A stretch of 64,000 nt of DNA from Deltaproteobacteria bacterium (lineage in GTDB: Bacteria; Myxococcota_A; UBA9160; UBA4427), in contig JADJOR010000002.1 in NCBI GenBank assembly GCA_016713665.1, positions 1,051,035 through 1,115,034 of the forward strand, given 5' to 3'. A program made the position numbers and the translations under genes. The notes beneath the pieces were generated by a model. That model did not search any database. It was not told where the DNA came from and saw only the letters and a program-made list of their open reading frames with translations. How positions within the stretch are numbered: position 1 is the stretch's first letter; each line of letters starts with the position of its first letter. Positions 12,035-56,508 of this stretch are shown one piece after another.

Positions 12035-12083
12035 GGGGCGATGCTCGGTGCGGCCGCTCCCGCGCGCCCCGGCTTCGGCCGCG

Positions 12084-25047: not shown

Positions 25048-25262
25048 TTCGTTCCCTTCCTGGGCTCCCGATCGCGACGCATCACGGAAAGTTCGCCTTC
25101 CCAGAGTCCGGATCCTCGGAGTTCGAGAATCCGACGCGCCTTGGCTCGCCGTACGAAATCCGTGAGCGCGAGCATGACCGCGGCCGAGTAGGTCTTCTCT
25201 CCGGAAAGGCGGGTGGCCTCGGCGAGTAGTGTCTCGTCAAGCACAAGATTTGTACGTTTCAT
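25044..25262 (-). CDS. vapB: VapB-family type II antitoxin
   Basis: MKRTNLVLDETLLAEATRLSG...AAVMLALTDFVRR. This is the typical VapB (DUF2191-like) N-terminus, and the gene overlaps vapC. Confidence 0.75.
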   Translation of the reverse strand: MKRTNLVLDETLLAEATRLSGEKTYSAAVMLALTDFVRRAKARRILELRGSGLWEGELSVMRRDREPRKGTK

Positions 25263-25306
25263 GCGCACAGTCTGCCCAAGGCGCCGCACGCCCGCCAACC
25301 CCCGCC

Positions 25307-26776: not shown

Positions 26777-26888
26777 CGGCCGAAGGACGCGGGGATGCGT
26801 CGGGCCGTGGTGGGAGGGTGGGGCGCGATGGGGCTTCGCGCGCTCCAGGAAGCGTCAAGAAGATCTCCGATTTCGTCGGTGGGCTCGA

Positions 26889-27902
26889 TCAGGGACACAC
26901 GGCGTCGCCGTCGCAGACGTTCCCGCCGGTCTGGATGCCGCTCTCGACCGTCGCGCCGTTGCCGTTGATCGTATTGCCTTGATAGGCGCCGGCCCCGTTG
27001 AAGGCGAGCCCGGTTCCGGTATTCCCGGTGATCGTGTTGTCGAGGACGCTGCAGCCGCGGGTCGAGTTGCCCAGGCAGATGATCCCGATGCCCGTGTTGC
27101 CCATCACGCTGTTGCCGCTGATGGTGGCCTGGTTGTCGACCAGGATGCCGCTCTGCTGATTGCCGTTCACGGTATTGCGGGAGATGGTCAGCTGGTCGCC
27201 GGAGATGCCGCGGCCGAAGTTCGCGTTGACGGTGCTGTCGAGCACGGTGGTCGCCGTGCCCGCGTCGATGCCGGCGCCGCCATTCGAGTTCGCGACGACC
27301 GACGAGATCCGGCTGCTGCTGCCCATCTCGAACCCGTCTCCGCCGTTCTCGGTCGAGGTGCAGTCCGAGACGTTCGACAGCAATCCGGTGCGGAGTCCGC
27401 TCAGGCGATTGGAATGGAAGCGCACGCCGCGGACGATCGCGCGCGGGCCGAGATCCGCGCCCAGGCTCCCCCCGTTCGAGATCGTGCCGTTCTCGAGGGT
27501 GACGTTCCCGAGGCTGATCGCGCCCGAGACGAGGGAGTTGACGCCGTTGCTCGGGCTGCACGTGACGCCGCCCGCACCCGCGGAGCAGAAGGTGACCCCG
27601 CGGATCGTGAAGCCGTTCAGGTCGATGTGGACACCGCTGGTCGAGATCGAGATGGCGCTCGTGCTCTCGTTGGGCGTGACGAGATTGCTCGTCAGCACGT
27701 AGCTCCCGGGCGCGAAGATCTGGATCGGGTAGCCGGCCGAATCACCGACCGATGCGTCGCCGACCAGCGCGCGCGTGTGGGAGAGCTCGATCCGTCCATC
27801 GCCGGCGTGCGCGGCGTCGGCCAGGGCGAGGACGCTGAGCGCCGCGGCGAGGGCGGCGGGGAAGCTGGTCGTCGATCGGGTCCAAACGGCGCTCTGCTTC
27901 AT
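26889..27902 (-). CDS. Secreted right-handed parallel beta-helix repeat protein
   Basis: Signal peptide (LAAALSVLALADAAHA). Iterated G/N/S-rich approx 22-aa repeats (NTVNGNQQSGILV, NSVMGNTGIGI, NTITGNTGTGLAF). Confidence 0.75.
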   Translation of the reverse strand: MKQSAVWTRSTTSFPAALAAALSVLALADAAHAGDGRIELSHTRALVGDASVGDSAGYPIQIFAPGSYVLTSNLVTPNESTSAISISTSGVHIDLNGFTIRGVTFCSAGAGGVTCSPSNGVNSLVSGAISLGNVTLENGTISNGGSLGADLGPRAIVRGVRFHSNRLSGLRTGLLSNVSDCTSTENGGDGFEMGSSSRISSVVANSNGGAGIDAGTATTVLDSTVNANFGRGISGDQLTISRNTVNGNQQSGILVDNQATISGNSVMGNTGIGIICLGNSTRGCSVLDNTITGNTGTGLAFNGAGAYQGNTINGNGATVESGIQTGGNVCDGDAVCP

Positions 27903-30095: not shown

Positions 30096-31874
30096 TCAGG
30101 CGAGTGCTCCTTCCATCCAGTCGATCAGCTTCTCGAGTCCGGCCTGCGGATCGGGGCCGAGGTCGACGCCGAGCATCCGGCGGCCGCGCGCCGACAGGAC
30201 GTGGAAATCGCCTAACGCCTGGGCCTCGGCCAGCGCATCGAAGTCGCCGCCGATCTCGGGAATCGCGAGGGGCGCGCGCTTTGCGGCGCGGCGGGCGCTC
30301 GCGGATTGCCAGAGCTGGAGGCCGGCGAGGCGGTTCGGGCCGCCCTTCTGGAGCTGACCCGTCGAGTGGAGATAGCGCGGCCCGAAGGAGAGCGTCGTCG
30401 CGACGGGGCGCGCGCGACCGACGGCCCGGCGCAGTCGCTCGAGGGCGGCGCGGGTCTCGGGTGCGTCGGCGAGGAAGGCGTTGATCAGGAAGCCGTCGCC
30501 GGGCTGGATCGATTCGACGAGGGTCCGCAGCCAGCGGGCGGGCTCGCGCGGGCCGCGGGCGAGGGGCGCCTCGAGCTCACGGGCCGCGAAGAGCTCGATC
30601 CCGCCGGCCGCGAGCGAAGGCGCCGTGTCGGCTCGCGTCGAGCTGCTCCCGCCCGCCATCAGCGCGCGGGTCGCCTGCTTCGCGGCCTCGACGTCGGGCT
30701 GGTCGAAGGGGTTCACGCCGAGGACGGCGCCGACGACGGCGGTCGCCATCTCCCATTGATAGGCCGCGGCCCCGAGCGCGAAGGGATCGGCGAGCTCGAG
30801 CCGGATCACCGGATGCCCCGCCTTCGCGAGCGCGTCGAGCCGTGCCGCCCGCTCGGCGCGCGTCGGGTCGTCCGCATCGCCCGGGCCGTTCGCACCGCCC
30901 GCCGCCGCGCCGGAGTCCGCGCCCCCGCCGCCGACCGCGACGTCGACGAAGATCCGGTCCGCTGCATAACGTCCCGGCTCGAAGAGCCCCTCGCCCGTGA
31001 CGGGCAGCAGCCCGAGCCCCGACTTTCCCGTCGACTCGGCGATGAGCTGCTCGATCCAGCCGCCGAAGCTCTCGATCGAAGGCGAGAGCGAGAGGGAGAG
31101 CTTGTCGCGGCCGGCCCGGGCGAGAACGCCGAGGGCGAGGCCGAGATCGACGCCGGGATTCGCGGCCGCCTCGACCTCGGGACCGCAGCCGTTCGCCATC
31201 CGCCGCGCCGGCGCGAGGAGTCGCTCCGGGTCGAGGCCCATCGCGAGGGCCGGGAGCAGGCCGAAGGGCGAGAGCGCCGAGAAGCGGCCGCCGACGTCGG
31301 CGCGGCCCGGGGCGATGCCGAGGAAGCCGTCCTTTCGGGCGCGGGCCTCGAGGTCGCTGCCGGGGTCGGTGATCGCGACGAAGTGACGGCCGGCCGCTTC
31401 GCGGCCGAGGCGGGCGTCGAGGCGCGCGCGGATCAGCGTGTAGAGCGCGTTTGGCTCGATCGTCGAGCCCGACTTCGACGAGACGAAGTAGAGCCCGTCC
31501 TCGATCGCGACGCTCGTGAGACAGGCCTCGATCGCATCGGGCACCGTCGTGTCGAGGACATGCAGCGCCCGCCGCGCCCCGCGCCCGTTCCACGTCCGCC
31601 CGAGCACGTCCGGCCAGAGCGACGAGCCGCCCATCCCGAGCACGACCGCGAAGCGCGCCGGATGCCGGGCGATGGCGTCGCGCAGCGCCGCCGGCCCGAT
31701 CGCCGCGTCGGGCTGTGCATTCGGCAGCTCGAGCCAGCCGAGCCAGCGCGCTTCGTCGGCATTCGAGAAGAGCGCGGCGTCGCGCGCCCAGAGTCGGCGG
31801 GTCGAGGCGTCGGCGTCCCAGCGGCGGCGGGCCGCGGCATGGGCTTCCGCCTGCGCGCCGAGCTCGAAGCGCAT
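30096..31874 (-). CDS. pgi: Glucose-6-phosphate isomerase (PGI family)
   Basis: VLGMGGSSL and VSSKSGSTIEP SIS-domain motifs. It lies directly downstream of transaldolase, as in tal-pgi units. Confidence 0.75.
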   Translation of the reverse strand: MRFELGAQAEAHAAARRRWDADASTRRLWARDAALFSNADEARWLGWLELPNAQPDAAIGPAALRDAIARHPARFAVVLGMGGSSLWPDVLGRTWNGRGARRALHVLDTTVPDAIEACLTSVAIEDGLYFVSSKSGSTIEPNALYTLIRARLDARLGREAAGRHFVAITDPGSDLEARARKDGFLGIAPGRADVGGRFSALSPFGLLPALAMGLDPERLLAPARRMANGCGPEVEAAANPGVDLGLALGVLARAGRDKLSLSLSPSIESFGGWIEQLIAESTGKSGLGLLPVTGEGLFEPGRYAADRIFVDVAVGGGGADSGAAAGGANGPGDADDPTRAERAARLDALAKAGHPVIRLELADPFALGAAAYQWEMATAVVGAVLGVNPFDQPDVEAAKQATRALMAGGSSSTRADTAPSLAAGGIELFAARELEAPLARGPREPARWLRTLVESIQPGDGFLINAFLADAPETRAALERLRRAVGRARPVATTLSFGPRYLHSTGQLQKGGPNRLAGLQLWQSASARRAAKRAPLAIPEIGGDFDALAEAQALGDFHVLSARGRRMLGVDLGPDPQAGLEKLIDWMEGALA

Positions 31875-31877
31875 CGC

Positions 31878-33032
31878 CTACTTCCGACCGCCGAGGACCT
31901 GCTGGCGCTTCGCCTCGACGGATCGGAGCAGGCCGTCGAAGGCCTCGCTGAAGAGCTCGCAGCCCTTCGTGAGGAGCTCGTCGGTGATCGCGTCGAGGGA
32001 GATGCCGAGGCTCGAGAGCTCCGACAGCACGACCTTCGCCTCGCGATCGAGTCGGCCGGGGTCGCTGCCGAGGGCGTCGCGGACCTTGCCCTCGATGCGG
32101 AAGGCGGCGAGGGTCGCGTCGGGGACGGTGTTGACGGTGAACTTCCCGATCAGCTCGTCGACGTAGAGGGTCTTCGGGAGGGCGGGATCCTTCGTGCCGG
32201 TGCTCGCCCAGAGGACGCGCTGCGGATCGGCGCCGGCCGCGGCGAGCTTGCGCCAGCGCGCACCGCCGAGATCGTCGAGGAAGCGGGCGTAGGCGACCTT
32301 CGCGTTCGCGATGGCGACCTTCGCGTTGAGCGCCTGGAGCCGCTGCTTCACGTCGGCGGAGGCGCCGGCCGCGATCAGCTTCTCGGCGCGCTGGGCGACG
32401 CTCGCGTCGATGCGCGAGACGAAGAAGCTCGCGACGCTCGCGATGCCCGAGACCGGGAGGCCCTTCGCGAGGCGCGCCTCGAGGCCCGCCATGTAGGCGT
32501 CGTGGACCGCTTGATAGGCGGAGACCGCGAAGAGCAGCGTCACGTTGACGTTGAGCCCGTCCTCGATCAGCTGGCGGATCGCCGGGATGCCGGCCGGGGT
32601 CGCCGGGACCTTGATCATCAGGTTGTCGCGGGAGACGGCGAGGGCCAGGCGGTGGGCCTCGGTGATCGTGCCGGCCGTGTCGTTCGCGAGATGGGGCGAG
32701 ACCTCGAGGGAGACGAACCCATCGCGCCCCTCGCTCGCGTCGTAGACCGGGCGGAGCACGTCGCAGCCGAGCTGGATGTCGACGACGGCCAGGCGCTCGA
32801 AGACATCGAGGGCGTCCTTCGCGCCCTGGGCGACGAGGCCTCGGGCCGCGGCGTCGTAGTCGTTCGACTTGGCGATCGCCTTCTCGAAGATGGCGGGGTT
32901 CGAGGTCACCCCGCGGATTCCCTCGGCGCCGACCCAGCGACGCAGCTCCCCCGAGAGGAGCAGGTCGCGGCTGATGTTGTCGAGCCAGATCGATTGCCCG
33001 TGGGCATGGGCCTGGAAGACGGGTGTATTCAT
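31878..33032 (-). CDS. tal: Transaldolase
   Basis: Start at MNTPVFQ (33032). SIWLDNISR, GVTSNPAIFEKAI and the MIKVPAT (Schiff-base Lys) motifs. Confidence 0.9.
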   Translation of the reverse strand: MNTPVFQAHAHGQSIWLDNISRDLLLSGELRRWVGAEGIRGVTSNPAIFEKAIAKSNDYDAAARGLVAQGAKDALDVFERLAVVDIQLGCDVLRPVYDASEGRDGFVSLEVSPHLANDTAGTITEAHRLALAVSRDNLMIKVPATPAGIPAIRQLIEDGLNVNVTLLFAVSAYQAVHDAYMAGLEARLAKGLPVSGIASVASFFVSRIDASVAQRAEKLIAAGASADVKQRLQALNAKVAIANAKVAYARFLDDLGGARWRKLAAAGADPQRVLWASTGTKDPALPKTLYVDELIGKFTVNTVPDATLAAFRIEGKVRDALGSDPGRLDREAKVVLSELSSLGISLDAITDELLTKGCELFSEAFDGLLRSVEAKRQQVLGGRK

Positions 33033-33168
33033 CGGCGCGGCGGGTTGGGCGCACATGGAAGGGCAGATCCTCGTTGGCACGCGGGATGGGGGGAGCGGCC
33101 GCGCCCAGTATACGGGTTCGATGCTCGGACGGGAGAGGAGTCACGCGCGGCACAGCCCCGAAACGAAC

Positions 33169-41124: not shown

Positions 41125-41200
41125 GGGCCCGTAGCTCAGTCGGTAGAGCAGGAGACTTTTAATCTCTAGGTCCAGGGTTCGAGTCCCTGCGGGCTCACCA
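41125..41200 (+). tRNA. tRNA-Lys (anticodon UUU), CCA encoded
   Basis: gggcccgtagctcagtcggtagagcaggagaCTTTTAAtctctaggtccagggttcgagtccctgcgggctcacca. The cloverleaf is readable: 7-bp acceptor stem, GGAGA/TCTCT anticodon stem, and GGTTCGAGTCC T-arm. Confidence 0.95.
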
Positions 41201-41437: not shown

Positions 41438-42232
41438 TCAAAAGCTGATCGTCATCCCCCCCACCGTTCGCATCTGCGTGGACCCCAGCTGACTGAACGA
41501 CGAGAACGGCGGCGCGATCGAGGCGGACGCTTCGCGGACGAACCTCAGGTCGAGCGTGCAGTCCTGTGTGATGTCGATGGCGGGGTCGGTCGCCTCGGGC
41601 AGGAGGCCGAGGTCGTAGGAGTAGGCGCCGTCGTCGAGGACCTGGAGGTAGGAGCTCCCGCCTCGGGTCCCGCCCGTCAGCGTCTTGCAGGATCGGCTGA
41701 GCCAGATCTGGATGACGCCTCCCGGATCCGCGGGCGTCCATTCGAGATCGAGGTGGTCCTGGAAGCCGAGCGATAGTCCCGGAGTCGGCGACGTCACGGT
41801 GAACGCGGGGCGGAGCGGGAGAGTGAAGCTCGAGCCTCGGATGCGGATCGTGACAGGGCCCTCGGCGGGGCTGAGGTCGAAGGTTGTTTCGTAGTAGGGA
41901 GAGGTCGCGTCCGGATCGCGCTGGAGCGTTCGGGAGCGTCCGCCCAGGCTGACGCGGACGGAGTCCCCGCCGCCGAGCTCGACATCCTGGACGCCGAAGA
42001 GGATCGAGTCGCGTTCGAACGAGGCGCCGACGCGGACGTGGTCGGGCGAGCTGGCGACGACGCTGATGCTCGCCTCGAGATCTCCGGTCGCGACGCCGCC
42101 GCTGCTCACGGTATTCGAGGAGTCACCCTCGACGCTCGTGCTCGAGCCGCAGCCGATCAGATGGGCGGCGAATAGCGCGAGGAGAGCGAGCGATCGGATG
42201 CGAAATGGGGTCGAGCGCGACGGCAAGGCCAT
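41438..42232 (-). CDS. Lipoprotein of unknown function
   Basis: Start at MALPSRS (42232). Lipobox AAHLIGC. It is beta-rich with two similar halves and has no motif I recognise. Confidence 0.6.
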   Translation of the reverse strand: MALPSRSTPFRIRSLALLALFAAHLIGCGSSTSVEGDSSNTVSSGGVATGDLEASISVVASSPDHVRVGASFERDSILFGVQDVELGGGDSVRVSLGGRSRTLQRDPDATSPYYETTFDLSPAEGPVTIRIRGSSFTLPLRPAFTVTSPTPGLSLGFQDHLDLEWTPADPGGVIQIWLSRSCKTLTGGTRGGSSYLQVLDDGAYSYDLGLLPEATDPAIDITQDCTLDLRFVREASASIAPPFSSFSQLGSTQMRTVGGMTISF

Positions 42233-42591
42233 GTCGTTTTCTGCTTGGCGAACGAGCGCGTACGACGGGCCGGGGGTGTTCGGATCGGCGGACCCTTGGG
42301 GGGGCCGGGGGGCCTGCGGGATGCATCCCCAGTTGGTCGGGTGACCGGAGGGGAGCGCGAGGAAGCGACCGATCGGGTTTCGGGGGAGCATGGGTCGGCG
42401 ACCTCCTGATTCGATCTGGCCATCCGAGCATGCCGTGTGATCGGACGAAGATCCGTCGTGATTCCTTTGGATTTCCTTAAGGTTCGGGCGCGGTCCGGGC
42501 GGCGCGCGCGGCGCTCGACGGGGGCGATGGGGCTTCTTCGACCGTTACATTTCTCGCCCGATCCGCTATTCGGAATCTCGCGAGGCCCAGT

Positions 42592-45500
42592 CTGTCTTTC
42601 CTTATCCTCGACATCGAGCTCGGCCGCGACGGCGCCTTCCACGCCCTGGCGGCCCGCCGAGAAGGCGCAGAACGGCTCTGGGAGCGAGACCAGGGCGCGA
42701 CCTTCGAGAAGGCCCACCGAGAGCTCGTCGCCTGGCTGCGCCCCGACGACATCCTCGTTGGCCACAACCTCCACCGCTTCGACCGCCCCGCCATCGCCGA
42801 GCGCGTCCCCGACTCCCCGTTGCTTCGCCTACCGACCCTCGACACCCTCGAGCTCTCGGTCCTGGCCTTCCCCCGGCGCCCCTACCACCGCCTGGTCAAG
42901 GACGATCGCCTCGTCCGCGACGCCCGCCCGAGCCCGGTCTCTGACGTCCGCGCCTCGCAGCGCGTGCTCGAAGACGCGCTCGCAGCTTGGGAACCTTCGC
43001 CTTTAGTCCCACGCGCCGATCTCCCAGACCATGCCCGGGAGGGTTGGCGTCGCCTCTATGAAATGAACGGTTGGCCTTGGAATGCGAGCGAGGCCGTCGA
43101 TCTCCGGACTCGGTGGCGCGGCCGCGTCTGCGACAACAGCCCACGCCTATCGCCGACCCGAATCGACATGCCCCTGGTCCTTCTCGACGCGTGGCTCCAG
43201 GTGCAGGACGAGGCCGGCTCGGTCCTGCCGCGCTGGGTGCGCGAGAACTGGCCCGAGATCCGAACGATGGCCCGCGACCTGCGGGCGACCGCGTGCCGGG
43301 ACGCGTCTTGCGCGTGGTGTACGACGAATCTGAGTCCCGATCACTGGCTCCGCGAGGTGTTCGGATTCGACGCCTACCGGGAGGAGCCGGCGCTTCCCGA
43401 CGGTACCTCGCTCCAGCGCGACCTCGTCGCCCGCGGCCTGCGCGAACAATCGACCTTCGGAATCCTGCCGACGGGCGGCGGCAAGTCGCTCTGCTTCCAG
43501 GTGCCCGCGGAAGCGCGATTTCGACTTCTCGGACAGCTGACGATCGTCATCTCGCCCTTGCAGTCCCTGATGAAGGACCAGGTCGACTCCCTCAAGGACC
43601 GCATTCCGCACGGTCGCGCGATCTACAGTGGTTTGCCGAGCCTGCTTCGGCCTCATGTTCTCGAAGAGGTCAGGACGGGCGCCTGCGGGCTCCTCTACCT
43701 GTCCCCGGAGCAGCTTCGAAACCGCGGCATAGTAAAGCTTCTGAAGAGCCGCGAGATCGGCGCGGTCGTCTTCGACGAGGCCCACTGTCTATCGCAATGG
43801 GGCCACGACTTCCGGACCGACTACCCCTACGTGCTCCAGGCGATCCGACGCATCACCCAGACGGGCCCGATGCCGCCCGTCTTCCTGTTCACCGCGACGA
43901 CCCAACCCGACGCGACCCGCGAAATCATCGAGTACGCGCAGCAGTTCAGCGGCCACGACGTCGAGCTCGTCGATGGCGGCTCCGCCCGGGTCAACCTCAC
44001 GTACGAAGTGCGTCAGGTCGCTCCGCCGGATCGGGTCGAGACGGTCGTCGAGCTGTTGAGGGAGCACCTCCAGGACGGTTCCGCCGTCGTGTTTTGCAGC
44101 AGCCGGAACCGGACGGAGGAGATCGCCGACCAGCTGACCGCAATGGGCTTTCCTCGCAGCACTACCACGCCGGACTCGACGTCGACGAGCGCCGCCAGCG
44201 CCAGGACGACTTCATCCGCGGCGACATCCGCATCGTGACCGCCACGAACGCCTTCGGCATGGGCGTCGACAAGGACAACGTCCGGCTGGTCGTCCATGTC
44301 GACATGCCGAGCAGCCTCGAGGCCTACTTGCAGGAGGCCGGTCGGGCGGGCCGCGACGGGAAGCCGGCCACCGCCGTTCTCCTCTGGGCGCCCGGCGATG
44401 CCGAGCCCCGCTTTGAGATGACCGCGATGTCGGACCTGAGCGGCGATGATCTACGGGCGATCTGGCGCGCGATCCAGCAGCTGCCATCGGCGCGCATTGA
44501 TCAGCTCGAGCGCCGCGTCGTCACCCCGCGCGAGCTCTTGTTCCAGGAGGCCCTCGCGGGCCGATTCGATCCGTCGAACGAGCAAGAGGAAACCCGCGTC
44601 AAGGCGGCCGTCAACTGGCTCGAGCGGGCAGGGGTCCTGCAGCGCACGGAGAATCAGACGCTCGTCTTCACGGGACGCCCCCGACTTCCGACTCTCGATG
44701 AAGCAATCGCTGTCGTCGAGTCCCTCGACATCGCGCCGCCCAAGGTCGAGCAGTGGAAGGCCGTGCTGGCCCGGGTCTACGACGCGGGCGACGACGGCCT
44801 GTCTGCCGACGACATCGCCGTCTTGTGCCAGGAGATGTCGTACGAAGACCCGCTCGAGGGCGGACTGCGGATCCTCCGGATCCTCGCCCAGATGGTCGAG
44901 CGCCGGCTGTTGACCGCGGGCCAGACGTTCTCGGCCATCCTGAGCCATCGCGTCGTCGACAGCAGCGTTCGACGTCTCGATCGCTGGCGCGCCTGGGAAG
45001 ATCAGATCCTCGACGCCCTCGAGGAGCAGGCCGACGAATCCGAATGGGTCCACCTCCGACCGATCGCCGAGCGGCTGACATCGATCGAGGGCGCATGTAC
45101 TCCGAATGACGTCGCGCGCATCCTGCGGACCTGGCGGACCGCGCCGGACGGCCAGGCGCGCGGACGCATCGGGCCCGAGTTCCGAAGCCTTCGCGGCGAG
45201 ACGGGCCGCCTGCGGCTCGACTCCGCGCTCGCCGACGTCCGAACATGGCTGCATACCCGCCAATCCGTCGCCGCAGTTTGCCTGCGCGCCCTCGTCGATC
45301 TCGCCGAAGGCACGGGAAGCCAGGTCTTCGTCGCGACCGATCTCGAGCATCTCGTGGGCGTGGTCGAGCAGGACATGGTGCTGAAGTCGGGGCTGCAGAG
45401 CGTTCAGGATGCGGTCGTCTCCGCCGTCGGTTGGCTGCATACGCTCCGGATCCTCTCGGTCCAGAACGGCCTCGCCGTCTTCCGGATGGCCATGCAGATC

Positions 45501-45644
45501 GACCGGGATCCCTCGTGGCCGAAGCTCGGAGACCAGGAAGCCCAGCAGGCGACCGCGGCGCTGGCGTCGCACCAGGAGCAAAGGTCCTTCGCATCCACGT
45601 CATGGATGCCTGGGCCCGCCACATGCTCGAGGATCCAGGAGTAG
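42592..45644 (+). CDS. DEDD (DnaQ-like) 3'-5' exonuclease fused to a RecQ-family helicase with a long C-terminal extension; contains one frameshift
   Basis: Exonuclease motifs are LILDIE and VGHNLHRFD. RecQ motifs are PTGGGKSLCFQVPA, DEAHCLSQWGHDFR, HYHAGLD, ATNAFGMGVDKDNVRLVVHVDMP and QEAGRAGRDG. The frame changes at the TTT run 44149-44151 (track ORFs 42820..44238 and 43071..45644). No ATG/GTG/TTG lies upstream of the exonuclease motif; CTG 42592 lies 6 nt after GAGG. Confidence 0.75.
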
Positions 45645-47608
45645 GGGAGACCTTCCGGGCAGAGTGGTTCTCCTTGACGATCCAGGACTTCACTCGCAAG
45701 TGGTTCCCTGGCCGCAAACAACAGATCACTCGCCCCACCACGGCCGAGAGCTTCGACGCCATCGTTACGAACCTGAACGACGAGGACCAGGAAAAGATCG
45801 TCACCCGTGACATCCGGCGAAGCCATCTCGTCCTCGCCGGACCCGGGAGCGGCAAGACGCGGATCCTCGTCCATCGCGTCGCCTGGCTCCTGCGCGTTCA
45901 GCGGGTCCGGCCCCGAGAGATCCTCGTCGTCTGTTATACCCGCGCCAACGCGCTCGAGCTGCGCCGCCGACTCTCCCAACTTGTCGGTCGCGATGCCCGC
46001 TTTGTCACGATCCAGACGATTCACGCCGTCGCGATCAGCATGGTCGGATTCCACCGGATCGGGCGCGGTGGCGACTTGACCCTCGAGACGAGCCTCCCCG
46101 TCGCCGCCGCCATGCTTCGCGGCGAAGCGATGGAAGAGACGGAGCAGACCCGCCAGCGCGACGCCTTGCTCCGCGGCTTCAACTACCTGTTCGTCGACGA
46201 ATACCAGGACATCGACGCCGCGAAGTACGAGCTCTTGTCGGCCATCGCAGGCCGCGCCATGGAGGGCGACCAGCGGAGGCTTCGCGTCTTCGCGGTCGGC
46301 GACGACGACCAATCGATCTACGCCTGGGACGGCGCGAGCAACGACTTCATCCGAAGCTTCGAGCAGGACTACAACGCGACCCGCTTCATCGTGCCCCACA
46401 GCTACCGGAATCCGAAGGCGGTCCTCGACATGGCACAGGCCCTGATCGAGCCGCTGCCCGACCGTCTCAAGGCGGGGACTCGGTTGACGGTCGACCCCGC
46501 GCGCGACCCCGATCCGGACGTCGGCCCGTGGGCCGCGCGGCATCCCGATCTACGCGGGCGATACGTCTGGCATCGCGCGGCGTCGGTGCCCATCGCGGCG
46601 CGGCGACTGATGGAGGTCGTTCGCCGCTGGATCGACAACGGAGTCGCTCCCGATTCGATCGGCGTCCTTGCGCGCAGCCGTCCGACCGGGCTCCACCGGC
46701 TGCGAAGCGCGGCCGAGGCCGCGGGGGTTCCATTCGCCTGGACGCTCCCGGGCGAGAGTTCTATCCCGATGAGCCGGGTGCGGGAGGTGGCGACGCTGCT
46801 CGATTGGCTGCGGGAGCAGACGGGGGCGGAGGAGCGGATTGCCTCGGGGGCCTTGCTCGAGCAGATACGGCAGCTCTCGGATGGACCGTGGCGGGGCAGT
46901 CTCCTGGAATGGCTCGAGCCCTTCTCCGGTCGGAGGATGACGAGTGCCCAATGGCAATATGAGTTGCTTGCCTGGGCCCAGCTCGAGCGCCGAGCCCGTG
47001 TGTTGGGGAAGGGTGTGCATCTCGGGACGATGCATAGCGCCAAGGGGCTCGAGTTCGATCATGTCATGCTGCTCGACGACGGGACGCTTGCAGATACGCC
47101 GGAGGAGCGGAGGCTGCTCTATGTCGCGCTGACGCGGGCGCGGCGGTCGTTGCAGATCTTCTCAGCGTACGCACCGAGTCCGGTGTTTGCGGCGTTGCGG
47201 CATCCGAAGCTCGAGATTCGCGAAGAGCCGATGATCGTGGCGGATGCGGGGCCGGTTTCTGAATTCGAATACGGCTATGTCGACCTCGACTCAATCTGGA
47301 TCGATTGGTTGGGGCGGCAGCCGAGCGCCGATGCCGGGCACACGGCGATTCGGGAAGCGCAGTATGCGGATGCCTTTGTGATTCGGGCTGATGGCTCGAT
47401 CGTCGACACTGCCGGGCGGAAGGTCGCGGTGCTGTCCAATGCTGGGCAGCGGACGTGGTTGCCGCGGGTGGAGAGGCAGTTGAAGCTGCGGCTGGTTGCG
47501 GCGGTTCGGGAGGAGCGCGACTCGCCCGGGCGGGTGAAGGAGTATGCGGAGCAGCTGGTGGTGGGGCGGTGGTATACGGGGGTTTGGGAGGCGCGGTGGC
47601 GGGGGTGA
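45602..47608 (+). CDS. UvrD/Rep-like SF1 helicase with unassigned approx 130-aa C-terminal domain
   Basis: LAGPGSGKT, FVDEYQD, VGDDDQSIY, HSAKGLEFDHVML and YVALTRAR. The start is uncertain (ATG 45602 or 45623), and the protein may instead be fused to the upstream RecQ-like ORF. Confidence 0.8.
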   Translation: MDAWARHMLEDPGVGETFRAEWFSLTIQDFTRKWFPGRKQQITRPTTAESFDAIVTNLNDEDQEKIVTRDIRRSHLVLAGPGSGKTRILVHRVAWLLRVQRVRPREILVVCYTRANALELRRRLSQLVGRDARFVTIQTIHAVAISMVGFHRIGRGGDLTLETSLPVAAAMLRGEAMEETEQTRQRDALLRGFNYLFVDEYQDIDAAKYELLSAIAGRAMEGDQRRLRVFAVGDDDQSIYAWDGASNDFIRSFEQDYNATRFIVPHSYRNPKAVLDMAQALIEPLPDRLKAGTRLTVDPARDPDPDVGPWAARHPDLRGRYVWHRAASVPIAARRLMEVVRRWIDNGVAPDSIGVLARSRPTGLHRLRSAAEAAGVPFAWTLPGESSIPMSRVREVATLLDWLREQTGAEERIASGALLEQIRQLSDGPWRGSLLEWLEPFSGRRMTSAQWQYELLAWAQLERRARVLGKGVHLGTMHSAKGLEFDHVMLLDDGTLADTPEERRLLYVALTRARRSLQIFSAYAPSPVFAALRHPKLEIREEPMIVADAGPVSEFEYGYVDLDSIWIDWLGRQPSADAGHTAIREAQYADAFVIRADGSIVDTAGRKVAVLSNAGQRTWLPRVERQLKLRLVAAVREERDSPGRVKEYAEQLVVGRWYTGVWEARWRG

Positions 47609-47674: not shown

Positions 47675-47704
47675 TTGACAGCCCCTTCGGAGTCGGCGCA
47701 TATT
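47675..47704 (+). promoter_or_regulatory. Candidate abiE promoter TTGACA-N18-CATATT, predicting a leaderless or near-leaderless abiEi mRNA
   Basis: The -35 is at 47675-47680 and the -10 at 47699-47704, with ATG 47711 seven nt downstream. The TTG used as the ORF-track start is the -35 hexamer itself. Confidence 0.45.
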
Positions 47705-47710
47705 GCCGGC

Positions 47711-48349
47711 ATGCCGCGCGCACCTGCCGCTCCCACGCGTCACCGCACGAGCTCGAGCGACCCGCTGGACGGTCTCCGGGCTGCCGGGATCTCCGGATTC
47801 TTCCGACCGAGCCAGCTCGCGAGGGCGGGCCTGACTCGGGACCAGCTTCCGGCGCTCCTCCGGTCTGGCAAGGTCGAACGCATCGGCCGCGGCCTCTATC
47901 GGATCGCGGAGGCCGAGCCGACCGAGAACTACTCTCTCGCCATGGCATGCGCACGAGTGCCTAACAGCATCGTCTGCCTGCTGTCTGCGCTCCGCGTCCA
48001 CGGTATCGGTTCCCAGGCGTCCGCCGCGGTCTGGCTCGCCATCCCGCACAAAGCACGGGCGCCGCGTCTGCCCGAGCTTCGGCTGCGCATCGTGCGCTTC
48101 AGCGGACCGGCCTGGACATTCGGCATACAGGAAACCGAATTCGAGGGGGTGCCGGCACGCATCACGTCGCCGGCCCGGACCGTCGCCGACTGCTTCCGCT
48201 TCGAGCGCCTCATCGGACCCGAGGCGGCGATGGAGGCGCTTCAAGACGGGCTTCGCCAGCGCAAGCTGACGATCGCCGAGCTCTCTCGCGTGGAGGAAGT
48301 CCTCCCGTCGCGCCGACTCAGCGCGGCACTGGATGCGCGATCGATATGA
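47711..48349 (+). CDS. abiEi: AbiEi-family type IV toxin-antitoxin antitoxin / transcriptional regulator
   Basis: The N-terminal winged-helix segment (FRPSQLARAGLTRDQLPALLRSGKVERIGRGLYR) and C-terminal domain are typical of AbiEi. There is a 4-nt overlap with abiEii. Confidence 0.8.
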   Translation: MPRAPAAPTRHRTSSSDPLDGLRAAGISGFFRPSQLARAGLTRDQLPALLRSGKVERIGRGLYRIAEAEPTENYSLAMACARVPNSIVCLLSALRVHGIGSQASAAVWLAIPHKARAPRLPELRLRIVRFSGPAWTFGIQETEFEGVPARITSPARTVADCFRFERLIGPEAAMEALQDGLRQRKLTIAELSRVEEVLPSRRLSAALDARSI

Positions 48350-49266
48350 CGACCGATGCTGCCGCCTCGGTCCGTGCTCGACTCCTGAACCAGGCACGGG
48401 AACGCGGCGAGGAGTTCGAGTTGACGCTGACGCGCTTCGTCGCCGAGCGGCTGCTCTACCGCCTTGGAGCGTCCCGCGCGCGTGATCGCTGCATTCTGAA
48501 AGGGGCGAGCCTCCTCGCGGTCTGGCTTCCCGATCCCTACCGCGCGACGCGGGACATCGACGTCCTGGCATCGGGACCGACGGACGAGGACGCGATCCGA
48601 TCGCTCGTCGCCGAGATCTGTGCCGTTCCGTGTTCCGTGGACGGGGTGCGGTTCGACGTTTCCGAACTCGTCGTCGACGCGATCCGGTCCGAGGATGAAT
48701 ACTCCGGCCAGCGCGCGCGCTTCCGCGCCTTTCTAGGCAATGCGCGGATCGCCGTTCAGGTCGACATCGGCGTCGGCGACGCGGTGGCCGGACCGATCGA
48801 GGAGATCGACTACCCGACGATGTTGCCCGCGCTCCCCACGCCGCGGCTGCGCGCCTACCCGAGGCAGGTCGCCGTAGCCGAGAAGTTCGAGGCGATGGTC
48901 AAGCTGGACACGCGCAACAGCCGGATGAAGGATTTCCATGACGTCTGGGCCCTCGCCGGCGGATTCGCGTTCGAGGGACCAGCACTCCGAAGCGCCGTCG
49001 CCGCCTGCTTCGAACGGCGCGGTACCCCATGGACTGCCGAGGCGCCTCGAGCTTTGACGGCAGCGTTCTACCAGATGCCGGAGATCGAGTCCCGCTGGCG
49101 GCGCTATCTCGAGGCGGGCGCCGTGCTCGTGCCGCCGCCTGCGCAGTTCGAATCCATCGGGGAACGGATCATCCGCTTCCTGGGGCCGGTGCGCGAGAGC
49201 ATCCTTGCGGGCGAGCCGTTCCCGAAAATTTGGACGGAGGGAGGGCCGTGGCACCCGACCCGGTAA
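48346..49266 (+). CDS. abiEii: AbiEii/AbiGii-family nucleotidyltransferase toxin (DUF1814)
   Basis: ILKGASLL...ATRDIDVL nucleotidyltransferase motif, QVDIGVGD, and AEKFEAMV...SRMKDFHDVW. Confidence 0.85.
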   Translation: MTTDAAASVRARLLNQARERGEEFELTLTRFVAERLLYRLGASRARDRCILKGASLLAVWLPDPYRATRDIDVLASGPTDEDAIRSLVAEICAVPCSVDGVRFDVSELVVDAIRSEDEYSGQRARFRAFLGNARIAVQVDIGVGDAVAGPIEEIDYPTMLPALPTPRLRAYPRQVAVAEKFEAMVKLDTRNSRMKDFHDVWALAGGFAFEGPALRSAVAACFERRGTPWTAEAPRALTAAFYQMPEIESRWRRYLEAGAVLVPPPAQFESIGERIIRFLGPVRESILAGEPFPKIWTEGGPWHPTR

Positions 49267-50673: not shown

Positions 50674-51231
50674 CTAGCGGAGCACCCGCATCAACACGAG
50701 CGCGACGCAGAGCACGATCGAGGCGATCAGGATGCAGTAGCTCCAGCGCAGGAAGCGGTACTTGGAGCGGGCGACGGCCACGCCCTGCGCGTGGATGTCG
50801 CGCACGATGGCGGCCGTGAGGGCGTTCGTATCAGAAAGAAGCTCGCCCATTTCGCGCTGGTAGCGCTCGAGCGGAAGCTCGGCGAAGTGCAGGAAGAAGA
50901 GCAGGTTGAGCTTGTCCGGATCGCCGGGGCGATAGCGACCGGGCAGCGCGCAGAGAATCGCGAGCACGAGCGCGAGGGCCGAGCCGGAGAGCAGGACGAG
51001 CAGCGCGGGGCGGAAGTCCGTGTCGCCGAGCTGGGTGAGCCCGACGCTGAAGATCAGGGCGGACACGGTGATGAGGATGTTGGCCTTCGCGTCGGCCAAC
51101 GCGCTGAAATGGATGAGCCCCTGCTGCAGGGTCCGGAGCGCGTAGTCGACCGTGCTCCGGCTCTCGATCTCGGAGAAGAGCTGCCCCTCGGCGGCGGGAC
51201 CCGGATCGTCCTGGCGGGGCGTGGCGAGCAT
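50674..51231 (-). CDS. DUF5706 / Pycsar-effector-like (PycTM-like) membrane protein
   Basis: ATG 51231 follows a GAGGGAG SD. An N-terminal helix with FSALADAKANILITVSALIF is followed by 2-3 TM helices. This is a by-eye family assignment. Confidence 0.45.
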   Translation of the reverse strand: MLATPRQDDPGPAAEGQLFSEIESRSTVDYALRTLQQGLIHFSALADAKANILITVSALIFSVGLTQLGDTDFRPALLVLLSGSALALVLAILCALPGRYRPGDPDKLNLLFFLHFAELPLERYQREMGELLSDTNALTAAIVRDIHAQGVAVARSKYRFLRWSYCILIASIVLCVALVLMRVLR

Positions 51232-51491
51232 GACTCCCTCAGCGCGCACGAGCCACGCAGGCGGAGAATAACCTCCGGGGATTGCGCGGGACAGGCCGCC
51301 CTTGCTCCACGACGGCTCGAACCTGCGATCCGGCCCGGCCGGCCTCGGGCGCGCTCTCCACTCGCGATGGCCCGCTCGCCCGCTTCGGACGATCCGCGAC
51401 ACCGCCGGTGACCCGCGCCACTGAGCCCCTGCCCATTCCGGTCGATCCGCCCAGCCTGATCCCCACGCAGACTGAGCAAGGAGGGCCCCCC

Positions 51492-53703: not shown

Positions 53704-53886
53704 GACCCGGCGACCCACCTCCGATTCGTCCCGATTCCGCCCCGGATTCGAACGCGAATCCACGCCGACTCTTCACGGATGAGCGGGGGATTCTGGACGA
53801 CACTCTGTCGCAGTCCGACCGGAACGACCGGCTCGGATCGACGCGCCCCCCCGCCGTCAGGACGCGAGCAGCCGCGGAGGGAATCC

Positions 53887-56508
53887 ATGCGACGAGATTG
53901 GGACTTCGACCAGATCCTGGGTCGGCGCGCGCGCGTCGACTTCCATCTCCATTCCTACGCATCGAACACGACCGACTACTACGCCTCGAACTCGCTCGCG
54001 ATCCCGGAGTCCTACTCCGATCCGATCGAGACCTGGCGCCTGCTCAAATCTCGGGGGATGGACCTCGTCACCCTGACGGACCACAACTCGATCGCTGGCG
54101 TCAAGGAGATGCTCGACGCCGGGCTCGAGGACGTCTTCATCAGCGCCGAGATGACGGCGACCTTTCCCGAAGACGGCTGCAACATCCATGTCACGGCGGC
54201 GAACATCTCCGAGGAGGAGTTCGCCGAGATCGATCGCCTCCGGCCGAATCTCTACGAGATGCTGGCCTACCTCGACGAGCGGATCCGGACCGAGGCCGAG
54301 CGACCGGACGGTCGCCGGATCGCCTACTTCATGACCCATCCCCTGATGAGCACGAAGAACCGCCCGTATGGGCGCGAAGGCGCGCTCTCGATCCGACACA
54401 TCGAGCGCGCGATGCTGCTCTTCGAATGCATCGAGACCCAGAACGGCGCCCGGGCGCGCTCGGGCAACGACCTGACGGCCCACATGGTCGAATCGCTCGA
54501 CGAGAAGCGGATCCTCGAGCTCGCGGCGAAGCACGAGCTCGAGCCTCGGGGCGCGATCCCGTGGCGCAAAGCCGTCGTCGGCGGCTCCGACGATCATTCG
54601 GGGATCAATCCGGGCCGGACCTGGACCGAGTTCGAATACCACGGGGAGCGGCCGCGGCCGAACGACGTGATCGACTCGATCCGACGGCGATCGACGACGA
54701 CGGGCGGCATGCACGGCGGGCCGGTGACCCTCGCCCACGCCCTCGTCAAGCTGGTCTACGACGGCCAGAACCACCGACAGCGCGCCGAGCAGGCGACCCG
54801 GCTCCACCTCTCGGACCCGATCAACCTGCTGCTCGGCTTCGCTTTCGAGAAGCCCTCGGCGTCCCTGCGATCGCGCGCGGCCCTGCGGCTGCGCATCGCG
54901 CTCCAGACCGTCTTCGCGCGACCCTTCGCCCGGCTCGTCGACCGGCGCGAGTCCTTCGAACGGGTCTTCCTCGGCGAGGCCCAGACGCTGCTCGCCGACG
55001 AGAGCTTCCGGGGGCGCCTGACGGGCATCGGATCGACCGACGACAAGATCTTCCTGATCATCAGCACGCTCCTCGATCGGCTCTTCCTCCGCTATGCGGA
55101 GCGGATCCGGAGCCAGCCGCCCGGGGACATGGTCCGGACGATCAAGGAGTCGATCGCGCTGGTCAGCTCGAACCTGCTGGTCTCCCTCCCGTACTTCGTC
55201 TCCTACGCGAACTTCGGGACGGACCGTTTGCTGAACCGCGACGTCCGCCGCGCCTTCGACCTGCGACAGACCGAGCGCCTGCTGCTCGTGACCGACACGC
55301 TCTTCGACGTGAACGGAGTCGCGCTCACGATCCGGAAGATCCTGCGCGAGGCGGAGCGCCGCGGCATCGACCTCACGGTCGTGACCGCCCTGGCGGAGCA
55401 CGAGCGCGCCGCGGGGCTCGCGGATCCGGAGATCGCAGCGCTCGTCGCGCAGGGGCGCCTCAAGATCTTCACCGCCCTCGCGAGCGCCGATCTGCCCGAG
55501 TACCAGGAGCTCCAGCTGCGGCTGATCCCGTTCCTCGACCTCCTGCGCTTCGCCCAGGAGGGGGGCTTCAGCAAGGTCCAGATCTCGACCCCCGGCCCGG
55601 TCGGTGTGCTCGGTCTGCTCGCCGCGAAGCTGCTCGGACTCGAGACCGCGGCGACCTACCACACGAGCTTCCCGGAGTACGTCGAGGAGTACACGAAGGA
55701 CGTGAGCCTCGAGGCGCTGGCGTGGCGCTACATGGTCAGCTTCTACCACTGGGTCGACGAGGTCGTGGTCCCCTCGCGCTACATCGCGCAGCTCCTCCAC
55801 AAGCGCGGCCTGCGCAATCGCAACCTGCTCGTGCTCGATCGCTGGGTCGACCTCGAGCGGTTCCACCCCCGGCATCGCACGCCCGGCTTCTGGACGCGCT
55901 TCGGCCTCGACGACGAGGCGGCGCGGGTCAAGCTCGTCTACGTGGGCCGCATCGGCGCGGAGAAGAACCTCGACGTCCTGGCCCACGCCTATCGAAGCCT
56001 CCATGCGGAGCATCCCGAGGCCCATCTCGTGATCATCGGCGGCGGCCCCTACCGAGGCGAGCTCGAGGCGTTGCTCGAGGGGCTGCCCGTGACCTTCACG
56101 GGCTATCTCGGCGGCGACGATCTCTCCCGCGCGATCGCCTCGGCCGACGCGAAGCTCTTCCCGAGCACGACCGATACCTGGGGCAACGCGCCGCTCGAGG
56201 CCCAGGCCTCCGGGCTCCCGGTCGTGGTCTCCGATCGCGGCGGACCGCAGGAGCTGATGGAGGACGGGGTCACGGGCTTCCGGGTCCGGGGCGGAGACGT
56301 CCAGTCGCTGCTCGCCGCGATGCGCGCCCTGATGGATCGCGACCTGCGCGAGCGGATGGGCCACGATGCGCGCGCGTTCGTCGAGGCGAACGACGTGCCC
56401 GAGCCCTACTCGGCGATCCTCGAGAGCACGATCTACCGCGGGCGCCGACGGAGCGAGAAGCTCCTGGCCGGGCTGCTTCGCCACGAGGACGACGCGGCGT
56501 CGGCATGA
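53887..56508 (+). CDS. PHP-domain phosphoesterase fused to a GT4-family glycosyltransferase
   Basis: The N-terminus has the PHP motifs VDFHLHSYAS and LTDHNSIAG...GGSDDHSG. The C-terminal GT-B domain carries GRIGAEKNLDVL and FPSTTDTWGNAPLEAQASGLPVV (EX7E). Confidence 0.75.
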   Translation: MRRDWDFDQILGRRARVDFHLHSYASNTTDYYASNSLAIPESYSDPIETWRLLKSRGMDLVTLTDHNSIAGVKEMLDAGLEDVFISAEMTATFPEDGCNIHVTAANISEEEFAEIDRLRPNLYEMLAYLDERIRTEAERPDGRRIAYFMTHPLMSTKNRPYGREGALSIRHIERAMLLFECIETQNGARARSGNDLTAHMVESLDEKRILELAAKHELEPRGAIPWRKAVVGGSDDHSGINPGRTWTEFEYHGERPRPNDVIDSIRRRSTTTGGMHGGPVTLAHALVKLVYDGQNHRQRAEQATRLHLSDPINLLLGFAFEKPSASLRSRAALRLRIALQTVFARPFARLVDRRESFERVFLGEAQTLLADESFRGRLTGIGSTDDKIFLIISTLLDRLFLRYAERIRSQPPGDMVRTIKESIALVSSNLLVSLPYFVSYANFGTDRLLNRDVRRAFDLRQTERLLLVTDTLFDVNGVALTIRKILREAERRGIDLTVVTALAEHERAAGLADPEIAALVAQGRLKIFTALASADLPEYQELQLRLIPFLDLLRFAQEGGFSKVQISTPGPVGVLGLLAAKLLGLETAATYHTSFPEYVEEYTKDVSLEALAWRYMVSFYHWVDEVVVPSRYIAQLLHKRGLRNRNLLVLDRWVDLERFHPRHRTPGFWTRFGLDDEAARVKLVYVGRIGAEKNLDVLAHAYRSLHAEHPEAHLVIIGGGPYRGELEALLEGLPVTFTGYLGGDDLSRAIASADAKLFPSTTDTWGNAPLEAQASGLPVVVSDRGGPQELMEDGVTGFRVRGGDVQSLLAAMRALMDRDLRERMGHDARAFVEANDVPEPYSAILESTIYRGRRRSEKLLAGLLRHEDDAASA

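Follow-up and report, generated by a model that had tools for sequence, protein, structure and literature searches.

A family of single-polypeptide exonuclease-RecQ-UvrD proteins of about 1,700 amino acids and a probable pseudogene copy in a Myxococcota genome

The WRN protein has a 3'-5' exonuclease of the RNase D/DEDDy type and a RecQ-family helicase core on one polypeptide. In the Gabija system, a UvrD-type SF1 helicase (GajB) is coupled to an OLD/TOPRIM nuclease (GajA). The RecQ-like helicase PsyrT needs the partner PsyrA, and DpdF belongs to the dpd gene cluster. Hna, Nhi, DdmD and the DinG proteins of Bacillus and Staphylococcus combine a helicase motor and a nuclease in one polypeptide, without a conserved partner. 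PMC12525004 describes the nuclease of this DinG as an N-terminal DEDD exonuclease.

The stretch of DNA analysed here, in the following called the window, comprises 64,000 nucleotides of a Deltaproteobacteria bacterium (GTDB Myxococcota_A; assembly GCA_016713665.1, contig JADJOR010000002.1, positions 1,051,035 to 1,115,034). A preliminary description, made from the sequence alone, had proposed an undescribed defence system, consisting of an exonuclease-RecQ helicase of WRN-like layout and an adjoining, perhaps fused, UvrD-like helicase. With a probability of about 0.5, the best overall explanation would appear to be a single-gene family of proteins of ~1,700 aa, acting as nuclease-helicases against foreign DNA, of which the window contains a pseudogene copy.

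Gene structure and domains of the protein

Positions 42527-47608 (forward strand) represent a single gene, which encodes 1,694 aa once one base is restored at each of positions 42592, 44150 and 45581. The frame-repaired protein matched more than 100 unbroken proteins of 1,650-1,750 aa from end to end, with a top identity of 86%; in the homology search, over 100 full-length proteins were covered to 100% with E = 0, and a reconstructed sequence of 1,672 aa spanned 97-100% of the unbroken proteins. Judged by these sequence comparisons, the homology is far beyond chance. A pairwise DNA alignment with an intact ortholog (locus L001; 81-83% nucleotide identity) contained just three indels over the 5.1-kb coding region, each of them one base absent from the window copy, at the three positions given above. 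Since more than 100 unbroken homologues were matched and only these three 1-nt gaps were present over 5.1 kb, it is close to certain that the exonuclease, RecQ and UvrD parts, in the order described below, are encoded by one fused gene.

The sequence and its frame-2 translation place the start codon ATG at 42527; with the first 22 codons (42527-42592, +) it encodes MGLLRPLHFSPDPLFGISRGPV, upstream of LSFLILDIE, and the junction of SRGPV and LSFL is kept in the ortholog P0002. At the first frame break (42592-42593, +), the DNA alignment with L001 showed GTCTG in place of GTCCTG, and the frame changes from 2 to 1. The second (44149-44151, +) is a base absent at a TTT run, which leads from frame 1 to frame 3 and interrupts the RecQ core; the third (45580-45582, +), at an AAA run, leads from frame 3 back to frame 2 and interrupts the family-specific middle region. 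Both runs had been named as doubtful sites in the preliminary description and the frame switches exactly there; the break at 42592 and the true start had been missed.

From the N- to the C-terminus, the protein consists of a DEDD-type 3'-5' exonuclease-like domain, a four-cysteine cluster, a RecQ core, a family-specific region, a UvrD core and a beta-rich domain. The exonuclease-like domain (42592-43023, +) has its acidic residues in LILDIE, HNLHRFD and SDVRAS; LILDIE and VGHNLHRFD, both quoted earlier, are present in frame 1. Residues D33, E35, H84, N85, D90 and D144 (P0002 numbering) were invariant across 18 diverse members. Sequence matches were weak, the best being to exonuclease III-like chains (E 0.003), others to the T7 and Pol II exonuclease domains and to the exonuclease of DinG; Pfam RNase_T was matched below threshold in 6 of the 18 members, and the domain lacks the H or Y that commonly forms the fifth residue of the ExoIII motif. 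Domain searches of the protein yielded no match to the RNase D-type exonuclease PF01612, RQC or HRDC, and no RecQ zinc-binding domain was detected; the proposed likeness to WRN is one of layout only. A helical linker follows (43024-43347, +) with four invariant cysteines (C206, C261, C266, C269; C-x54-C-x4-C-x2-C), which probably form a metal-binding site.

Both helicase cores which had been recognised earlier were found by Pfam. The RecQ-family SF2 core (43348-44408, +) contains GGGKS, DEAH and QEAGRAGRDG (DEAD 1.2e-21, Helicase_C 3.4e-15); the ortholog scored 286 bits with TIGR00614 recQ_fam (cutoff 219.8) and 323 bits with the RecQ equivalog model, under its cutoff of 640. The UvrD/Rep/PcrA-type SF1 core (45749-47176, +) contains AGPGSGKT, DEYQD, GDDDQSIY and VALTRAR (UvrD-helicase 2.8e-40, AAA_19, UvrD_C). 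Between them, the middle region of ~445 aa (44409-45739, +) is predicted to form helices and short hairpins in a winged-helix-like array (AF2 model of the ortholog, pLDDT 79.6). A profile search with this region found 1,143 cluster representatives, in the same position of ~1,700-aa proteins and essentially only at residues ~620-1100. The C-terminal beta-rich domain of ~140 aa, with the stop codon (47177-47608, +; AF2 pLDDT 91.2), had no Pfam or PDB match by sequence. Structure comparisons of both regions, as suggested in the preliminary description, gave no significant PDB match for the middle region, the weak top matches being the multi-winged-helix proteins RPC62 and Cdt1; for the C-terminal domain, Foldseek returned lp_0118 (E 0.07) and the HIRAN domain of HLTF (E 0.4-2), with TM values of 0.35-0.5, and hhalign against HLTF HIRAN gave a non-significant probability below 1%. 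The domain may be HIRAN-like, a resemblance which is weak and not significant.

State of the copy in the window

The copy in the window is most likely a recent pseudogene and, since it carries three frame-breaking deletions, it is probably non-functional. Inactivation would be recent, because dN/dS against L001 is low (0.15) without lineage acceleration, none of the helicase or DEDD motifs is damaged, and no frame breaks were found in the other genes of the window. The dN to the outgroup L087 was 0.142 for the window copy versus 0.137 for the intact ortholog, there were no in-frame stops after frame repair, and serA and purA are unbroken and collinear with their counterparts in L001.

We consider it rather likely that the three breaks are real mutations. 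Assembly or sequencing errors, with an intact and functional gene in the organism, have a lesser, though appreciable, likelihood: the change is of the same type at all three sites, one missing base, as a systematic assembly error could produce, and the catalytic motifs without missense damage and the lack of acceleration would fit as well. Two of the three breaks fall at A or T runs, but these comprise just 3 nt each; the remaining ~59 kb of the window showed no frame switch of this kind, and if three random errors fell in 64 kb, the chance of the second and third hitting the 5.1-kb gene of the first would be ~0.006. Moreover, independent frameshifts and splits are present in finished plasmid sequences of Rhizobium and Nostoc.

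Distribution, neighbourhood and possible role of the family

Members are stand-alone proteins of ~1,700 aa, widespread and uncharacterised. When clustered at 50% identity, the family amounts to roughly 400-1,100 clusters from many phyla; near-full-length copies were present on plasmids or chromids, at least 21 in number, and none was found in phages. PADLOC, NCBIfam and Pfam gave only generic helicase matches for the protein (in PADLOC to DpdF, PsyrT and GajB), so that the earlier statement that no named defence system matches was upheld; no paper on an exonuclease-RecQ-UvrD family was found in the literature. Pseudogenisation is recurrent: copies on two Rhizobium plasmids have independent frameshifts, the copy on pNPUN02 of Nostoc punctiforme is divided into three ORFs, and the match to another Nostoc copy also spans an annotated IS1634 transposase, which suggests interruption by an IS element.

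In the window, tRNA-Lys(UUU) (41125-41200, +) lies upstream and an AbiE module directly downstream (AbiEi 47675-48349, AbiEii 48346-49266, +; Pfam; PADLOC 3.6e-55 and 1e-98), as described previously. The tRNA also precedes the ortholog in L001, and the locus downstream of it is syntenic in two related Myxococcota genomes. A PycTM-like (Pycsar effector-type) membrane protein is encoded at 50674-51402 (-; Pfam PycTM 5.6e-19, PADLOC 3.7e-12), with no adjoining cyclase. A 77%-identical homologue adjoins Zorya I, AbiE, HipA and a type I restriction enzyme; single other loci contain YjiT/YjiV together with an IS element, a PDC-S37/Hhe-like giant immediately upstream, SoFic, type I RM and HNH, CRISPR I-D and WYL, or a methylase, a helicase and an IS. 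Toxin-antitoxin modules occur near several homologues and IS elements flank several copies; some homologues lie among housekeeping or repair genes (Mfd, MutY, SNF2 helicase, topoisomerase IV), others among metabolic genes. In this tally, a small convenience sample without background control, association with defence genes is frequent and not universal; the proposed defence island is real at the window locus and at many homologues, whereas several have plain housekeeping neighbours. In 27 loci, no neighbour lying within 4 kb was conserved.

Helicases of the RecQ and of the UvrD/Rep/PcrA type move in the 3'-5' direction, DEDD nucleases begin digestion at a 3' end, and HIRAN domains bind 3'-OH ends. 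Since all recognisable modules would work at the 3' ends or 3' tails of DNA, the protein could be expected to load onto free 3' ends, gaps or fork structures, where the two motors would unwind the DNA and the 3'-ended strand would then be degraded. The family is a plausible unnamed single-protein nuclease-helicase of anti-MGE or repair type. Because it is accessory, plasmid-borne, often beside defence genes and frequently decayed, the likeliest role would be one directed at foreign DNA, of phages or plasmids, as it invades or replicates; we hold this defence or anti-MGE role tentatively, at somewhat less than even odds.

An accessory enzyme of DNA repair or fork processing, functionally a bacterial counterpart of WRN or of exonuclease-bearing DinG that acts on stalled or reversed forks of the cell itself without an immune role, appears rather unlikely. 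It would agree with the repair and metabolic neighbours of some homologues, the synteny downstream of tRNA-Lys, clear purifying selection (dN/dS 0.13-0.15), modules which are each typical of repair enzymes, and the LexA-type S24 peptidase domain of the homologue P0081; but members are patchily distributed and often carried by plasmids, their neighbours frequently include defence genes, toxin-antitoxin modules and IS elements, pseudogenisation recurs, and a gamma-type LexA box was not found upstream in 9 homologue loci. It is improbable that the protein serves its carrier elements instead of the host, for instance by aiding the replication of plasmids, the processing of DNA in conjugation or counter-defence: many near-full-length copies are on plasmids or chromids, some conjugative, and several are flanked by IS elements, but 187 of the 226 plasmid records were typed as non-mobilizable, many copies are chromosomal without mobile-element genes nearby, and relaxase, replication or partition genes were not linked in the 27 loci. 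A system of two cooperating genes, exonuclease-RecQ and UvrD-like, as favoured by the preliminary description, can practically be discounted, since, despite separate longest ORFs in the window sequence as it stands and separate RecQ, UvrD and '3'-5' exonuclease' genes in the annotation of pNPUN02, the parts are fused in more than 100 homologues, as the description had also considered possible, conservation in the UvrD frame reaches upstream of its first ATG (KVLRIHVMDAWARHML), and the split forms are frameshifted derivatives.

Comparison with known systems

The family core passes the RecQ-family subfamily model, and its best PADLOC matches were DpdF and PsyrT, although it remains under the RecQ equivalog cutoff; neither PsyrA nor the dpd genes were found at the family loci. 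With HLTF, an SNF2 translocase, the family may share the pairing of a DNA motor with a small beta-rich domain which reads 3'-OH ends; however, the structural similarity is not significant and the motor family is different.

GajB models matched the C-terminal half (1.8e-46), and Gabija, too, joins a UvrD-type helicase with a nuclease in the setting of a defence island. In the present protein, by contrast, the nuclease is a DEDD-like domain on the helicase polypeptide itself, no GajA-like gene adjoins the window locus, and the fusion also includes a second helicase, from a different superfamily.

As in WRN, an N-terminal exonuclease(-like) domain of the DEDD superfamily precedes a RecQ-family core on one polypeptide, and both activities would be expected at 3' ends. 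The weak exonuclease matches are, however, to RNase_T-type and polymerase proofreading domains, without the ExoIII H/Y; the RecQ zinc-binding, RQC and HRDC domains were not detected in the family protein, and a second (SF1) helicase is lacking in WRN. The two resemble each other through convergent layout and not through orthology.

Hna, Nhi, DdmD and DinG come close in having motor and nuclease on one chain without a conserved partner, DinG also through the weak PDB match of its exonuclease domain. To our knowledge, no described single-protein helicase-nuclease joins SF2 and SF1 helicase cores with a nuclease; the middle region and the C-terminal domain are specific to the exonuclease-RecQ-UvrD family.

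One gene read in three frames

The coding signal on the + strand between 42.4 and 47.6 kb of the window (G+C content ~70%) passed through three successive reading frames. The exonuclease-like motifs lay in frame 1, as did the first half of a RecQ core; this core was completed in frame 3, which also contained ~400 unassigned residues, and frame 2 encoded a UvrD-type helicase with a C-terminal extension. The switches were located at the T run 44149–44151 and the A run 45580–45582, exactly where the preliminary description had placed them. Upstream of 42820, no ATG, GTG or TTG was present in frame 1; in frame 2, ATG 42527 was followed by MGLLRPLHFSPDPLFGISRGPV, which became continuous with LSFLILDIE once one base was restored at 42592. 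When the three frames were joined by using one base twice at 44151 and one at 45581, a sequence of 1,672 amino acids was obtained, which aligned over 97–100% of its length to more than 100 uninterrupted proteins of 1,650–1,750 amino acids. Every one of these full-length matches possessed both DEAD/Helicase_C and UvrD domains; the closest (85–86% identity) originated from Myxococcota metagenome assemblies. The window was also aligned at the DNA level to the gene of P0002, an intact ortholog of 85% identity encoded at locus L001 of a related Myxococcota genome (GCA_041389445.1). The 5.1-kb coding region differed by three indels and no more; in every case the window lacks a single base, namely at 42592, 44150 and 45581. 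Including 22 N-terminal codons, the intact protein would have a length of 1,694 amino acids. Intact homologues also include WP_223295316.1 of Allochromatium vinosum pALVIN01 and AXQ96069.1 of Cereibacter sphaeroides. Thus, from the uninterrupted homologues and the three single-base indels, the exonuclease-like, RecQ and UvrD parts are, as judged by sequence comparison, one fused gene (42527–47608, + strand). The fusion, which had been proposed as a possibility, is therefore confirmed, and the reading as two separate genes has to be abandoned.

No stop codons remained after repair of the frames, and the catalytic motifs were all intact. The dN/dS ratio was 0.15 between the window copy and L001 and 0.127 between the window copy and L087, a family locus with 77% identity; taking L087 as outgroup, dN was 0.142 for the window copy and 0.137 for the intact L001 copy. 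Because of these ratios and the nearly equal dN values, any loss of constraint would have been very recent. In a GC3 frame plot, the rest of the window was free of comparable frame switches, all other same-strand frame changes being ordinary stop/start boundaries; serA and purA were intact and collinear with L001. A suspected break at 56505 was rejected as an ordinary ATGA stop/start overlap, and the adjoining ORFs in the same frame at 30096–33140 proved to be two separate genes, PGI and transaldolase. Since all three breaks fall in one 5-kb gene within 64 kb, and at runs of three bases, real mutations are favoured. A real and recent pseudogene is thus a rather likely explanation for the window copy, and the local copy is probably dead.

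Domains of the encoded protein

The exonuclease-like domain comprised residues 27–170 (numbering of P0002). Residues D33, E35, H84, N85, D90 and D144 were invariant in 18 diverse members, and D33, E35, D90 and D144 were also kept in the window copy. In DEDD exonucleases, the counterparts of D33/E35, D90 and D144 are the DxE of ExoI and the D residues of ExoII and ExoIII; the four acidic residues characteristic of the DEDD (DnaQ-like) 3'–5' exonuclease superfamily are therefore all present. ExoIII lacked its customary H or Y, the position five residues before D144 being variable in the 18 members; Y124 and H125 were invariant in the same set, at positions other than that of the ExoIII H/Y. A profile of the domain gave weak matches in the PDB: small exonucleases (E 0.003), the exonuclease of DinG, and two polymerase proofreading domains, those of T7 DNA polymerase and Pol II. 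Pfam RNase_T was below threshold in 6 of the 18 members (best E 0.0056), and DNA_pol_B_exo1 was the sole other Pfam hint. The domain is probably DEDD-like and active. The invariant cysteines C206, C261, C266 and C269 suggest a putative metal site.

The RecQ-family core (residues 279–632) belongs to the RecQ helicase subfamily of NCBIfam (TIGR00614 recQ_fam; 286.1 bits for P0002 versus a cutoff of 219.8), and the window pieces matched DEAD (1.2e-21) and Helicase_C (3.4e-15) in Pfam; the lysine of its Walker A motif is K324. It is not a canonical bacterial RecQ, as the equivalogs TIGR01389 and PRK11057 reached 323 bits versus 640 and 264 versus 1015, respectively; RQC, HRDC and RecQ_Zn_bind gave no Pfam match at E ≤ 0.01. 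The following middle region (residues 633–1076) is specific for the family. Its AF2 model (pLDDT 79.6) consisted of helices and short hairpins and had no significant match in the PDB, the weak top matches being multi-winged-helix proteins. With a profile of this region, 1.84 billion clusters of 50% identity yielded 1,143 representatives at E ≤ 0.001, of which 405 reached E ≤ 1e-30; it was situated almost always at residues ~620–1100 of full-length proteins of ~1,700 amino acids; the shorter matches look like fragments.

The second helicase core (residues 1080–1555) is of the UvrD/Rep/PcrA type, with K1115 as its Walker A lysine. At the domain level it belongs to the UvrD-like SF1 group (UvrD-helicase 2.8e-40, UvrD_C 6e-13), and its scores of 144–149 bits with the NCBIfam equivalogs of UvrD, PcrA and Rep lie far below the cutoffs of 911–1144. 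The C-terminal domain (residues 1560–1698) is beta-rich, was modelled with high confidence (AF2 pLDDT 91.2) and had no sequence relatives in PDB or Pfam. Foldseek yielded only weak matches, to lp_0118 and the HIRAN domain of HLTF; hhalign with an HLTF HIRAN sequence was not significant. One family protein, P0081 (1,870 amino acids), contained an extra Peptidase_S24 (LexA-like autocleavage) domain, which hints at DNA-damage or RecA regulation in that lineage. The upstream regions of 9 homologues contained no LexA box of the gamma type.

Distribution, decay and genomic neighbourhoods

The family is large, occurs in many phyla and is annotated solely as "RecQ family helicase". Near-full-length copies were detected on at least 21 plasmids or chromids; matches in phage records were confined to the RecQ core and extended over about a quarter of the protein at most. 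The scan of genome contigs, which used RecQ motifs as patterns, returned for this reason mainly ordinary RecQ genes, and only ~15 of the 80 loci retrieved belonged to the family. Two Rhizobium plasmids (L094, L095) carried independent frameshifts at different sites beside a HipBA module, with the sister plasmids being intact. Nostoc punctiforme (L097, L101) possessed an intact copy on pNPUN01 and, on pNPUN02, a copy split into three annotated ORFs. The family match on another Nostoc plasmid also spanned an annotated IS1634 transposase, suggesting interruption by an IS element. The broken copies of Rhizobium and Nostoc occur in finished sequences. For annotation this means that adjoining "RecQ", "UvrD" and "3'-5' exonuclease" fragments in some genomes, e.g., on pNPUN02, are pieces of one broken gene.

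No neighbouring gene within 4 kb was conserved in 27 loci; the gene therefore stands alone, and a multi-gene system was rejected. The neighbourhoods were mixed and often conflict-related, according to a tally which is a convenience sample without background control. In the window, AbiEi (47675–48349) and AbiEii (48346–49266) follow directly downstream; their ORFs share 4 nt, and they form a tandem AbiE module of antitoxin/regulator and nucleotidyltransferase, separate from the helicase gene (Pfam AbiEi_4 1.6e-9 and AbiEii 5.1e-41; PADLOC 3.6e-55 and 1e-98). A PycTM-like protein is encoded 3 kb further. L087 contained HipBA, AbiE, a complete Zorya I and a type I restriction subunit; L004 had YjiT/YjiV-type genes and an IS element; L014 had SoFic, and at L012 a homologous ORF adjoined the family gene. 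On plasmids, the neighbours were type I RM and HNH in Allochromatium, CRISPR I-D and WYL in Thiothrix, and methylase, helicase and IS in Nostoc; toxin-antitoxin modules were present at several loci, and so were IS elements. At L010 (Tritonibacter scottomollicae), the start of a family ORF of 1,896 amino acids (9842–15532) overlaps by 4 nt with the end of the preceding gene (3954–9845), whose product of 1,963 amino acids matched PDC-S37 (E = 0) and Hhe (1e-165), both of them defence candidates; these two giant helicase-type proteins may be encoded in one operon.

Several other features of the window were recorded. The PycTM-like ORF (50674–51402, − strand; 242 amino acids) matched the Pycsar effector domain PycTM (Pfam 5.6e-19, PADLOC 3.7e-12). 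It has no adjoining cyclase gene, being flanked by a divergent bactofilin gene and one of the epoxide hydrolase type; as an effector it may be an orphan, or else belong to an unrecognised pair. A glycosyltransferase of 909 amino acids (53779–56508, + strand) passed the Pfam model GT4-conflict (35.2 bits, cutoff 26), which describes family 4 glycosyltransferases in conflict systems; it had no PADLOC match and is followed by an aminotransferase gene with the ATGA overlap at 56505. Region 21700–25300 showed a G+C of 0.63–0.67 versus about 0.70–0.74, a weak codon-position signal, ORFs overlapping on both strands and no Pfam matches, and may be foreign or decayed DNA. The tRNA-Ala(CGC) called by ARAGORN at 26800–26890 (+ strand; 91 nt, anticodon at position 38) was below the gathering score of the Rfam tRNA model, which makes either a false positive or a tRNA of unusual or interrupted structure probable. 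An ORF of 317 amino acids (41438–42391, − strand), situated between the tRNA-Lys and helicase genes, had no Pfam or PADLOC match; since L001 has other genes in the equivalent gap, this is a variable spot adjoining the tRNA.

Possible role and comparison with known systems

RecQ and UvrD/Rep/PcrA helicases translocate in the 3'–5' direction, DEDD nucleases digest from 3' ends, and HIRAN domains bind 3'-OH ends. As all recognisable modules point there, we infer an action at 3' ends or tails of DNA: the protein would load at these, the two motors would unwind the DNA, and the exonuclease-like domain would degrade the 3'-ended strand. The neighbourhood had earlier been regarded as typical of a defence island, which holds for the AbiE module here and for the defence genes beside many homologues; it does not hold for some copies, which are found among repair or metabolic genes, and two Myxococcota genomes share the locus by vertical conservation, downstream of tRNA-Lys, which likewise speaks against a conflict context. 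The family is accessory, associated with plasmids, often adjacent to defence genes and prone to decay; a role against phages or plasmids, with chances somewhat short of even, is therefore favoured over an accessory role in fork repair, which is considered less likely. Several marks of conflict genes are seen in the family, namely location on plasmids, neighbours belonging to defence islands and recurrent decay, and it is a credible candidate for a single-protein nuclease-helicase system that has not been named. In its full form, our tentative proposal (probability about 0.4) is an unnamed stand-alone immune protein with dual motors (SF2 RecQ and SF1 UvrD), a built-in 3'–5' exonuclease and a C-terminal domain reading 3' ends, which would recognise and destroy replicating or incoming foreign DNA via its 3' ends. 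The cost of such an immune protein to the host would explain the frequent broken copies, including that in the window. If defence is true, a single-gene, 3'-end-directed nuclease-helicase would be added to the known set, together with a tractable model for the cooperation of two motors of the same polarity; a repair factor would be a bacterial counterpart of WRN-type processing.

The combination of an exonuclease with helicases of two different superfamilies in one protein is unusual. No description of an exonuclease-RecQ-UvrD architecture was found in the literature, which does not prove that none exists. In agreement with the preliminary description, no named system was matched by PADLOC v2, which returned generic helicase models only: the RecQ half matched those of DpdF and PsyrT, and the UvrD half that of GajB. 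The partners required by these three systems were absent from the window. Gabija would need a neighbour like the ATPase-TOPRIM/OLD nuclease GajA, which the window lacks, in spite of the GajB-type match (1.8e-46). The PsyrT model (4.2e-37) covered only the helicase core, and there was no partner gene for the antitoxin PsyrA as in PsyrTA (RqlHI). The DpdF models covered the RecQ core only, with partial profile coverage (NF041063, 188.8 bits versus a cutoff of 550), and neighbours like those of the dpdA-K cluster for 7-deazaguanine DNA modification and restriction were missing. The sole well-known exonuclease-RecQ combination is eukaryotic WRN, which has been described as unique among RecQ proteins for its exonuclease activity (PMC2408639). 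The designation "WRN-like" can be retained for the layout, since the exonuclease precedes the RecQ core in the same domain order; the family does not belong to the WRN type, as WRN contains an RNase D/DEDDy-type exonuclease (DNA_pol_A_exo1), RQC and HRDC, which were not found in the family, and has no SF1 motor, whereas the family possesses a UvrD-type SF1 core.
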